Source of the DNA: Escherichia phage 121/2022-2B
Sequence record: OR958571.1
Direction: 5' to 3' (one strand)
DNA length: 64,000 bases
A model generated the notes under the pieces. That model did no database searches. It saw only the letters and a program-made list of their open reading frames with translations, and was not told where the DNA came from. The translations under genes were made by a program, and so were the position numbers. Positions 53,306 to 54,047 of this stretch are shown here, one piece after another; the first letter of the stretch is position 1, and each line of letters starts with the position of its first letter.

Positions 53306-53344
53306 AATAAATACCCTTACCTTAAATAGATAAGGGTATTTATT
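53306..53344 (-). promoter_or_regulatory. Gene 49 leader hairpin (14-bp perfect inverted repeat) sequestering the SD
   Basis: AATAAATACCCTTA-N11-TAAGGGTATTTATT, ending 1 nt before the gene 49 ATG. Confidence 0.6.
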
Positions 53345-53348
53345 ATTT

Positions 53349-53525
53349 TTAAGTATTGTAAAACATTCGATGCAATCGTTTATACTGTCGAATCATCTTT
53401 TTAGTAGGACGAGAATAGGTTCCTACGCAAGTGGTCATATGAGGGTCCGTAGAATGTCCTTTAATAAAAAGTTTCCAAACCTTACCGCCATTTAACTTTT
53501 CAGTATAAACCAATTCGGTTTTCAT
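53349..53525 (-). CDS. Small ORF (58 aa) with PinA-like C-terminal tail
   Basis: C-terminus KKMIRQYKRLHRMFYNT almost identical to the end of the 161-aa pin-like protein. Confidence 0.4.
   Translation of the reverse strand: MKTELVYTEKLNGGKVWKLFIKGHSTDPHMTTCVGTYSRPTKKMIRQYKRLHRMFYNT
53351..53394 (-). repeat. Direct repeat copy 1 (44 bp)
   Basis: About 40/44 identical to 53564..53607. Confidence 0.7.
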
Positions 53526-53561
53526 TAAAATGTCCTGTCAGAAAAAGAATTTTGAGTTTTT

Positions 53562-54047
53562 TCAAGTATTGTAAAACATTTGATGCAATCGCTTATATTG
53601 CCGAATCTTTTGGTCAGAAAAAGAAATTTGAGTTTCAAGCCATTCAATGTACTCTGCGGCAGCTTGCATCAGGTTACCTTCATAGCCATCGTTATTTTCT
53701 TGCGCAGCTAATTTAGCTAATGCGTATGAAATACGTTCACCTTGAAAAGCGGCTTTAGGCTTCTGAACAACTTGATTAGTTCGCTCTACAACTTCTTCAA
53801 TTTCGCCATTTTCGACTGATTCAGTATTCCACAAGCACCAATACGTAATTGGCTTATCGTAGATGTTAATAATCTTTCCATCAGAAAGTTCAATTTCAAT
53901 AATTCCAGTGTCAGGCTCTATATCATCTTCACATTCTTTTGCAAGTTCACGAACTTTAAAGACAGTACCTGCACTAAGTTCCGGCCAGTAATTACACAGC
54001 CCCGTATCAGCACGATTAATTCTAAACCACTTATCTACTGTAATCAT
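53562..54047 (-). CDS. pin: Probable PinA (Lon protease inhibitor) homologue
   Basis: 161 aa from internal ATG (MITVDKWF...); size and position next to gene 49. Confidence 0.5.
   Translation of the reverse strand: MITVDKWFRINRADTGLCNYWPELSAGTVFKVRELAKECEDDIEPDTGIIEIELSDGKIINIYDKPITYWCLWNTESVENGEIEEVVERTNQVVQKPKAAFQGERISYALAKLAAQENNDGYEGNLMQAAAEYIEWLETQISFSDQKIRQYKRLHQMFYNT
53564..53607 (-). repeat. Direct repeat copy 2 (3' end of pin-like gene)
   Basis: About 40/44 identical to 53351..53394. Confidence 0.7.

Follow-up and report, generated by a model that had tools for sequence, protein, structure and literature searches.

A C-terminal tail shared by PinA and a neighbouring DUF7279 protein in the pin-gene 49 interval of a Tequatrovirus

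In this report we consider the interval between pin and gene 49 (endonuclease VII) in Escherichia phage 121/2022-2B, as represented in a 64,000-nucleotide stretch of sequence record OR958571.1 (referred to throughout as the window), and in particular a short direct repeat through which the predicted product of pin and that of a small open reading frame (ORF) of 58 codons between the two genes come to share the same C-terminal tail. The window derives from a Tequatrovirus that is 98-99% identical in the pin/gene 49 region to phages UPWr_E4, YUEEL01 and RB32, and the genes of interest all lie on the minus strand, with the transcription order pin, 58-aa ORF, gene 49 and nrdD. The best-known counterpart of the first of these genes encodes T4 PinA (UniProt P07068; PF10465, Inhibitor_I24), which, according to the part of PMC8835725 that cites Hilliard et al. 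1998, binds the Lon protease and inhibits its ATP-dependent activity. The window pin likewise encodes 161 residues with the same C-terminal tail and offers no protein difference to set against T4 PinA; from its identity of about 93-98% to the pins in the databases, it would be expected to inhibit Lon in the same way. The 58-aa ORF has its closest described relatives in the DUF7279/phrog_3272 family (RB32ORF078c, RB69ORF087c and JS98 orf76, with T4 gp61.4, of phrog_2375, as a paralogue), of which it is a full-length member, and in the GenBank annotation of RB32 its counterpart, ORF078c, is described as "similar to … pin".

Two further described systems bear on this interval. T-even genomes are known for modular indel hot spots between conserved genes, at which deletions, duplications and fusions arise through short homologies. 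The other system is the RNA hairpin in the gene 49 leader, by which early read-through RNA folds and masks the gene 49 ribosome-binding site while late transcripts stay open. Control of this kind in the T4 gene 49 leader was reportedly the subject of work by Barth, Powell, Trupin & Mosig (1988, Genetics 120:329). Hairpins that sequester ribosome-binding sites control T4 late genes in the account given by review PMC2988022, which, where it deals with gene 49, cites Barth et al. 1988 and places the gene alongside soc, e and the intron endonucleases. A literature search, limited in its reach, found no paper that mentions DUF7279 or these ORFs, or a PinA C-terminus that originated in a neighbouring gene.

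The shared tail and its source

The pin product ends in …QKIRQYKRLHQMFYNT and the 58-aa product in …KKMIRQYKRLHRMFYNT, and the last 15 residues of each are encoded by a direct repeat whose two copies are identical at 41 of 46 positions (5 differences) and lie 213 nt apart, in a match that can be extended to 63 nt at 83% identity with the same spacing. A first-pass annotation of the window, made from the sequence alone, had reported a 44-bp repeat (about 40/44 identical) with copies 210 bp apart; the repeat is real, with a core of 46 nt and a spacing of 213 nt instead, and the common tail that had been read from it is borne out by the translations and by alignment of the two tails. Chance is excluded as the origin of the repeat because the best 46-mer match in 30 shuffled 64-kb windows never had fewer than 17 mismatches, and an artefact of assembly is ruled out by the presence, in 113 independent genomes, of the junction that follows the pin-borne copy. 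That annotation overlooked a second direct repeat, here called X (53537-53559 and 53613-53635), in which 22 of 23 positions are identical at a spacing of 76 nt. X1 lies inside pin directly before the tail and X2 in the 36 nt that separate the stop codon of pin from the 58-aa ORF, and the history of the locus turns on this repeat.

Table 1. Features of the pin-gene 49 interval in the window (SD, Shine-Dalgarno sequence; T/X, tail copy A to X2)
Feature	Coordinates	Strand	Basis or remark
pin (PinA, Lon protease inhibitor family), 161-aa fused form	53562-54047	-	PF10465 E = 2e-48; phrog_2167 E = 1.8e-66
X1 (53613-53635) and fusion junction CAAAAG (53608-53613), joining the last ancestral pin codons …ETQISFSD to the tail	53608-53635	-	Repeat search
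Tail copy A, putative captured DUF7279 3' end, the last 15 pin codons (…(K)IRQYKRLHQMFYNT, stop)	53562-53607	-	Repeat and profile matches
T/X junction, pin stop TGA and A-run joining tail A to the relic	53557-53564	-	Junction in 113 phage records
Putative relic of the ancestral pin 3' end, non-coding (X2 and AGGACATTTTAA)	53525-53559	-	22/23 identical to X1
AGGA, probable SD of the 58-aa gene	53533-53536	-	Within the relic; 7 nt from ATG
58-aa DUF7279/phrog_3272 gene (= RB32ORF078c)	53349-53525	-	Pfam PF23945 62.7 bits; phrog_3272 E = 3.4e-34
Tail copy B, native DUF7279 3' end (…MIRQYKRLHRMFYNT, stop)	53349-53394	-	Repeat comparison
Gene 49 leader hairpin	53304-53346	-	5' arm 53328-53346; loop 53323-53327 (5 nt); 3' arm 53304-53322
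Putative late-promoter box AATAAATA (TATAAATA with A at -13)	53337-53344	-	Read from sequence; inside 5' arm
Gene 49 (endonuclease VII, 157 aa)	52832-53305	-	Pfam Endonuclease_7 and Endonuc-dimeris; annotated gene 49 at the same place in RB32, RB14 and T4

Several lines of evidence indicate that the tail is foreign to pin. Profiles of the pin family stop short of it, with PF10465 matching residues 4-141 (164.2 bits, cut-off 27) and phrog_2167 (146 positions) matching residues 1-146, and residues 147-161 instead match positions 44-58 of phrog_3272 (E = 0.0098) and, in a comparison with the window ORFs, positions 43-58 of a DUF7279 hidden Markov model built here (E = 2e-5). The pins of Mosig-, Dhaka- and Gapriverviruses and of more distant phages end in …RRLS or …FS(D/S)xxF without the tail, e.g., …EYLERRLS in RB69, …FSDEAF in JS98 and VR20, and …FSSKSF, …FNAKSF or …FSDRGF in distant metagenomic pins. 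Many Tequatroviruses encode a 148-aa pin that ends in …ETQISFSDRAF, and tail-less pins altogether account for some 135-150 Tequatrovirus genomes (about a quarter of Tequatrovirus pins) and for all of the other genera examined. Judged by these profile matches and comparisons, the 161-aa PinA of the T4 type is a fusion of pin to a DUF7279 tail, i.e., its residues 147-161 lie outside the pin family and would derive from the neighbouring gene, and natural pins of 148 and of 136-144 residues exist without them.

The tail is instead native to DUF7279 as its C-terminal helix, because the family profiles cover it, because it includes the most conserved block of the family and because it forms a packed helix in the structural model. 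The 58-aa product scores 62.7 bits against the Pfam DUF7279 profile (PF23945; cut-off 24.5, residues 7-56) and matches phrog_3272 over its full length (residues 1-58), tail included. Conservation within DUF7279 is highest in the block RPTKKMIRQYKRLHR, by which the distant paralogues can also be recognised, including gp61.4, RB69ORF089c and S16 gp48.2. AlphaFold2 predicts for the 58-aa protein a compact beta-beta-beta-alpha fold with a mean predicted local distance difference test score (pLDDT) of 91, consisting of strands at residues 2-9, 15-22 and 31-36 followed by a helix at 42-57, which is the tail. A profile search run exhaustively against 1.84 billion representatives returned only 14 matches; these are small proteins of T4-like phages, except for a few longer multi-stretch proteins whose E-values are weak, and the tail was not found on any other type of protein.

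The 58-aa ORF itself has a wide and orderly distribution. Homologues were detected by tblastn in 357 phage records of Tequatro-, Gapriver-, Dhaka-, Mosig- and Gelderlandvirus, and the gene is kept upstream of gene 49 in four Tevenvirinae genera; in RB69, JS98 and VR20, as in the window, the gene 49 hairpin follows it directly. This position, together with the conserved (R/K)PTK+xIRxxK+ helix, is what the window ORF has in common with the rest of the family. In 14 pairwise comparisons across four genera (PD112, VR20, JS98 and RB69 among the phages compared), the ratio of non-synonymous to synonymous change (dN/dS) is 0.08-0.20 for the gene as a whole and about 0.05 for the native tail, for which the proportion of synonymous differences (pS) between genera reaches 0.6-0.8. 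Since synonymous sites are thus near saturation while the peptide is conserved, selection on the tail acts at the level of the peptide and not of the DNA. By all of these comparisons the 58-aa ORF is a real, old and conserved gene under purifying selection and not a by-product of duplication, and its product looks functional, as a small protein with the predicted beta-beta-beta-alpha fold. The first-pass annotation had proposed that duplication of the pin 3' end created the small ORF, and here the direction must be reversed: the conserved DUF7279 gene owns the tail, and pin would have gained it secondarily. In the O157 typing phage 3 genome (L011, 1463-1641) and in two further proteins (P0008 and P0017) the DUF7279 gene is frameshifted (as ORFs of 29 and 30 aa) or truncated, and because of such occasional lesions it appears that the gene has been lost by decay as well as by deletion.

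DUF7279 paralogues also occur elsewhere. A second one in the window is an 85-aa ORF (28969-29226, minus strand; Pfam E = 2.3e-20, motif VRPTKRQIRQCKRYFRK) that is the orthologue of T4 gp61.4 and lies between dmd (29228-29410) and sp (28615-28908); T4, which is without the 58-aa ORF, retains gp61.4. Mosigviruses have DUF7279 paralogues on both sides of pin (RB69, L008, 960-1076 and 1501-1680). Two metagenome contigs encode a 191-aa protein in which the upstream paralogue continues in frame into pin, and in another contig a deletion between ACGTTT repeats has joined pin to the final 9 residues of the downstream one (Mosigvirus-type contig coordinates for these observations: L025 1329-1499; L026/L027 1501-2076). 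In Dhaka- and Gapriverviruses pin itself appears to be split and permuted (JS98, L009, 1029-1504; VR20, L007, 1777-2219), with a 57-aa ORF that carries the C-terminal helical part of pin (…FSDEAF), then an ORF of 89-100 aa that resembles the N-terminal beta domain (…FWCFW…), and then the DUF7279 gene.

Four arrangements of the interval

The pin-49 interval of the phages compared here exists in four arrangements, all of which align base for base. Form 1, represented by T4 and RB14, consists of pin, X, the tail and the hairpin, without the small ORF, so that the T4 interval, when compared with that of the window as the annotation had proposed, has the fused tail and no 58-aa ORF. Form 2 (PD112, Sholem, ESh24) consists of a 148-aa pin ending in …SFSDRAF, the stop codon of which overlaps, as TAATG, the start of a DUF7279 gene that bears the sole tail. 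Form 3, that of the window and RB32, combines pin-X1-tail A with X2-AGGACATTTTA and an ATG that opens the small gene ending in tail B. Form 4 (SH_GT, Pu-Krd-SF2) has the 148-aa pin alone, the ORF being deleted between TTTTAAT and TTTTACAAT. By blastn with short queries centred on each junction, the fusion junction common to forms 1 and 3 was placed in 365 records (with the variants CAAAAG, CAAATG and, in T4, CGAATG), the T/X junction of form 3 in 113 and form 4 in 69, and about 252 Tequatroviruses, T4 included, have the fusion only (form 1); the number for form 2, about 65-80, was estimated from tblastn identity bands. A scan of IMG/VR with pin yielded only 6 loci, too few to add much.

The unfused arrangement is found in RB69, JS98 and VR20 and again in PD112, Sholem and ESh24, i.e., in outgroups and in some members of the ingroup. 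The outgroups fix the direction of transfer, and comparison shows form 2 to be the ancestral one. The ancestral locus would thus have consisted of a 148-aa pin (…ETQISFSDRAF) whose stop overlapped the ATG of a small DUF7279 gene, the latter encoding a C-terminal basic helix (…RPTKKMIRQYKRLHRxFY…) and ending just before the gene 49 hairpin. A putative trace of this state survives in the window, where X2 and AGGACATTTTAA read …TQNSFSDRTF out of frame with pin; because this segment is colinear with the true form-2 pin ends (…ETQISFSDRAF-TAATG in PD112, Sholem and ESh24), it is best read as a relic of the ancestral pin terminus.

We propose that a first event deleted the last 3 codons of pin and the first 43 codons of DUF7279, which would have placed pin codon 146 in frame with the last 15 DUF7279 codons and so created the 161-aa PinA of T4 (form 1). 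A second event, an unequal short-homology (illegitimate) join, may then have occurred in the CTTGAAA/A-run sequences found at the end of the fused pin (…ACTTGAAAA) and before segment X (…GGCTTGAAACTC), CTTGAAA being present in front of both X1 and X2. Its outcome would have been a fused pin placed ahead of an unfused X-DUF7279 unit, in the order pin (X1-tail A), relic X2, SD, DUF7279 (tail B), hairpin and gene 49. Form 4 would be a deletion of the whole ORF. The two pairs of repeats in form 3 would also leave the locus prone to homologous deletion, with a 213-nt loss giving the T4 form and a 76-nt loss the unfused form. An independent parallel to the first event is seen in a Mosigvirus-like contig in which pin is fused to the last 9 codons of the tail via a deletion between two ACGTTT repeats, and another contig has lost its DUF7279 ORF altogether. 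Like other indel hot spots of T-even genomes, this one comprises allelic arrangements (four of them) with short repeats at their borders (CTTGAAA/A-run, TTTTA(C)AAT and, in Mosigvirus, ACGTTT), with mosaic reassortment of the flanking pin sequence; it differs from other such events in that the scar is in frame and forms part of a biochemically studied model protein, and in that donor and recipient copies coexist in one genome.

The window gene departs from the usual DUF7279 arrangement in being uncoupled from pin, by a 36-nt gap and an SD of its own, without the TAATG overlap. In form 2 the 58-aa gene would be translationally coupled to pin, and since this coupling is lost in form 3, the 58-aa protein would be translated from its own SD. 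SD-like sequences (AGGACA or AAGGCA) occur only in genomes in which pin and the ORF no longer overlap, the sequence elsewhere being CGAGC(A/G), and this change within the relic would fit continued selection for expression of the gene.

Taken together, these comparisons argue that the repeat was left by a gene fusion that persists beside the intact donor gene, an explanation to which we assign a probability of roughly 0.8, and the earlier suggestion that it marks a module-exchange junction holds to the extent that the repeat does mark a junction of rearrangement. The age of form 3 relative to form 1 is suggested by several details: the A-run at the T/X junction is 5, 6 or 11 nt long in different phages; tail A has the markers of form 1 (CGG, CATCAA) and tail B those of form 2 (CGA, CATCGA); and all of the sampled form-3 genomes have an identical ORF sequence with a TAA stop, as opposed to the TGA after the tail and the three junction variants of form 1. 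For these reasons form 3 seems to have been built from form-1 and form-2 genomes that had already diverged, and to be younger than form 1. An alternative is that the X-DUF7279 unit was first duplicated in tandem in an unfused ancestor and the body of the upstream ORF then deleted, so that the window form arose first and later gave the T4 form through a homologous tail-to-tail deletion. This path calls for the same number of illegitimate joins, and recombination between the tails would delete exactly 213 nt, the observed difference in length from T4 and RB14; the uniform ORF of the sampled two-copy genomes and the diverse junctions of the T4 type point rather to an older T4 form, the markers of the two tails fit a join of two diverged lineages, and we consider this alternative unlikely. 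Certain points nevertheless weigh against the history that we favour. A different order of events, with a tandem duplication in the unfused ancestor followed by deletions, would yield the same four forms; the T/X junction contains 3 extra A's as compared with a clean CTTGAAA crossover, although the A-run is polymorphic in length; no microhomology is evident at the breakpoint of the original fusion; the view of the pin-borne tail as a passenger (see below) rests on few substitutions (4 vs 2 sites) and is not statistically secure; and the fused pin is the commonest form, which could mean that it confers an advantage.

Other observations on repeats and mosaicism in this region may be recorded here. 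Positions 53450-53471 and 53526-53547 match at 18 of 22 positions at a lag of 76, which is also the lag of the X repeat, and an equally good match at any lag occurs in 1.5% of shuffles. Changes specific to two-copy genomes have given both segments the same AGGACATT, with HS in place of SP in the ORF and AGGACA in place of CGAGCG in the relic, which could reflect a short-patch templated conversion or a coincidence. A tandem array with a 76-nt period was considered and rejected: Tandem Repeats Finder detects nothing, and identity at lag 76 is random outside the repeats designated D2 and D3. Within pin, an otherwise strongly conserved segment at about residues 110-121 (about 53690-53720) exists in the alternative versions AKLAAQENNDGYEG and AKVALKKDIDDYEG, and because each is found among both 161-aa and 148-aa pins (P0033, P0034, P0039, P0043, P0045, P0046), it appears that mosaic recombination has occurred in pin independently of the status of the tail.

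Possible roles of the tail

The most likely reading of the pin-borne tail is that it is a tolerated passenger that extends the C-terminal helix of pin. The AlphaFold2 model of pin has an N-terminal beta domain, a disordered stretch at residues 89-104 and a long C-terminal helix at 121-159 that continues into the tail at low confidence. The passenger interpretation is preferred because the tail is absent from many pins, because pin-borne tails have substitutions where DUF7279 varies little or not at all (T4 has R46Q, RB14 has H52N and every pin has R53Q) and because of their polymorphic sites, of which 4 are non-synonymous and 2 synonymous, versus 5 and 12 for the native tail. The resulting Fisher p of about 0.16 is a hand estimate, and the relaxation of constraint on the pin-borne tail is suggestive only.

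The tail might instead be a portable functional module selected on both proteins, either as a pseudo-degron that binds Lon or as a helix that binds a partner or nucleic acid, in which case T4-type PinA would have gained it adaptively and the DUF7279 proteins would act in the same pathway as pin; the first-pass annotation had itself offered a C-terminal degron or interaction motif. Among Tequatroviruses the fused pin is the most frequent form (the 365 records above), pin and DUF7279 have become fused on at least three occasions (P0057, the N-terminal fusion P0056 and the T4 type), the RB69 pin is flanked on both sides by DUF7279 paralogues, and the exposed end of the tail is aromatic (FY), like that of Lon degrons such as Sul20 (PMC8087443). 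When compared directly with the Sul20 degron, however, the tail attains a best ungapped BLOSUM62 score of 18, the mean for shuffles being 14.2 (p = 0.14), a similarity at the level of chance, and a Sul20-like degron was rejected on this ground and because the tail is helical in both models, where it is packed within the compact fold of the 58-aa protein and is not an unstructured, exposed end. The many Tequatroviruses and other genera with tail-less pins leave a degron or Lon-interaction role unsupported, the independent fusion that retains only 9 residues is what a random deletion scar would give, the substitutions at DUF7279-invariant positions run counter to selection for the module, and adjacent genes separated by 0-9 nt fuse easily without any functional link. 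We regard a module selected on both proteins as quite improbable, and the fuller proposal that T4-type PinA captured the DUF7279 helix adaptively (e.g., to engage Lon or a shared partner), with the small DUF7279 proteins serving alongside pin as host-takeover factors, as no more probable. If it were true, the recurrent pin/DUF7279 fusions would constitute a "Rosetta stone" signal of a functional link, and the takeover factors would include the 58-aa ORF, gp61.4 beside dmd and the paralogues that flank pin in RB69. It is barely credible that the repeat has been kept not for its peptide but as a DNA or RNA element in cis for gene 49 expression, i.e., a promoter, processing site or leader structure. 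The tail always adjoins the hairpin, and minimum-energy folds include a weak outer helix between the 3' end of the tail and gene 49 codons 2-6; yet the tail has a pS of 0.65-0.78 between genera with its peptide conserved (dN/dS of about 0.05), 69 genomes without the tail keep the hairpin and gene 49, copy A is 213 nt away from the hairpin, no Rfam family scores above threshold and the tail contains no sigma-70-like promoter. The Rfam matches are all sub-threshold and driven by the hairpin, so that a known RNA family was also set aside.

The gene 49 leader and the meaning of the locus

The hairpin upstream of gene 49 occupies the same position as in T4, between the stop of the upstream ORF and the gene 49 ATG, and is 96% identical to the T4 sequence over 50 nt. 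As RNA it folds into a stable stem of 19 pairs (16 contiguous Watson-Crick pairs, one G-U and 2 more) with a free energy of -25.7 kcal/mol (z = -5.5), and the SD (UAAGGG) is paired in its 3' arm, as are the A and U of the gene 49 AUG (53305-53303). What had been described as a perfect 14-bp inverted repeat ending 1 nt before the ATG is therefore present as an inverted repeat, with a stem that is longer and takes in two bases of the start codon; the SD in the 3' arm, the late-promoter-like box AATAAATA in the 5' arm and the match to the T4 control element were correctly seen. Of the 50 T4 late promoters listed in PMC2988020, 9 have the A(-13) variant of the late-promoter box, and in RB69 the corresponding position is occupied by a perfect TATAAATA. 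Position and sequence make the window hairpin orthologous to that of the T4 gene 49 leader, an already known control element, and it would operate as in T4, with early read-through transcripts masking the gene 49 SD and AUG and late transcripts, which would start in the 5' arm at AATAAATA, remaining open, by the same masking logic as at soc, e, I-TevI-III and segB. Unlike the T4 hairpin, which has a 2-nt bulge (-18.6 kcal/mol), and that of RB32, which has a 1-nt bulge (-20.4 kcal/mol), the window stem is fully paired, through extra bases in its 3' arm (53304-53322). A fully paired version identical over 50 nt was present in only 10 of 731 phage records, most of the others having a bulge of 1 or 2 nt, and this variant is the only new detail about the hairpin.

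The sole strong promoter-like site lies upstream of pin, and the repeat contains neither a sigma-70 promoter nor an intrinsic terminator. That site, a near-consensus sigma-70-type sequence (TTTACA-17-TATAAT, 11/12; 54088-54116, minus strand) within a 49.1-like ORF, precedes the pin ATG by about 40 nt and is probably the early promoter from which pin, the 58-aa ORF and gene 49 read-through RNA are transcribed.

The finding is real and evolutionary in nature: deletion, fusion and re-joining through short homologies at an indel hot spot are events of a known kind in T-even genomes, and what is new is a well-resolved example that involves a model protein, the mechanism being ordinary and none new being revealed. 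Its relevance comes in part from the fact that T4 PinA is the standard phage inhibitor in studies of Lon, and the last 15 residues of that protein would be a recent add-on from another gene. This provides a rational domain boundary for PinA constructs, and the natural 148-aa and 137-aa versions are a ready deletion series for tests of the tail. DUF7279 is marked as a real, conserved and structured family of small proteins, with at least two copies in the window genome (one by pin and gene 49, the other by dmd). For the T-even phages in general, the interval offers a clean four-allele case of how joins at short homologies may create, fuse and delete small genes.

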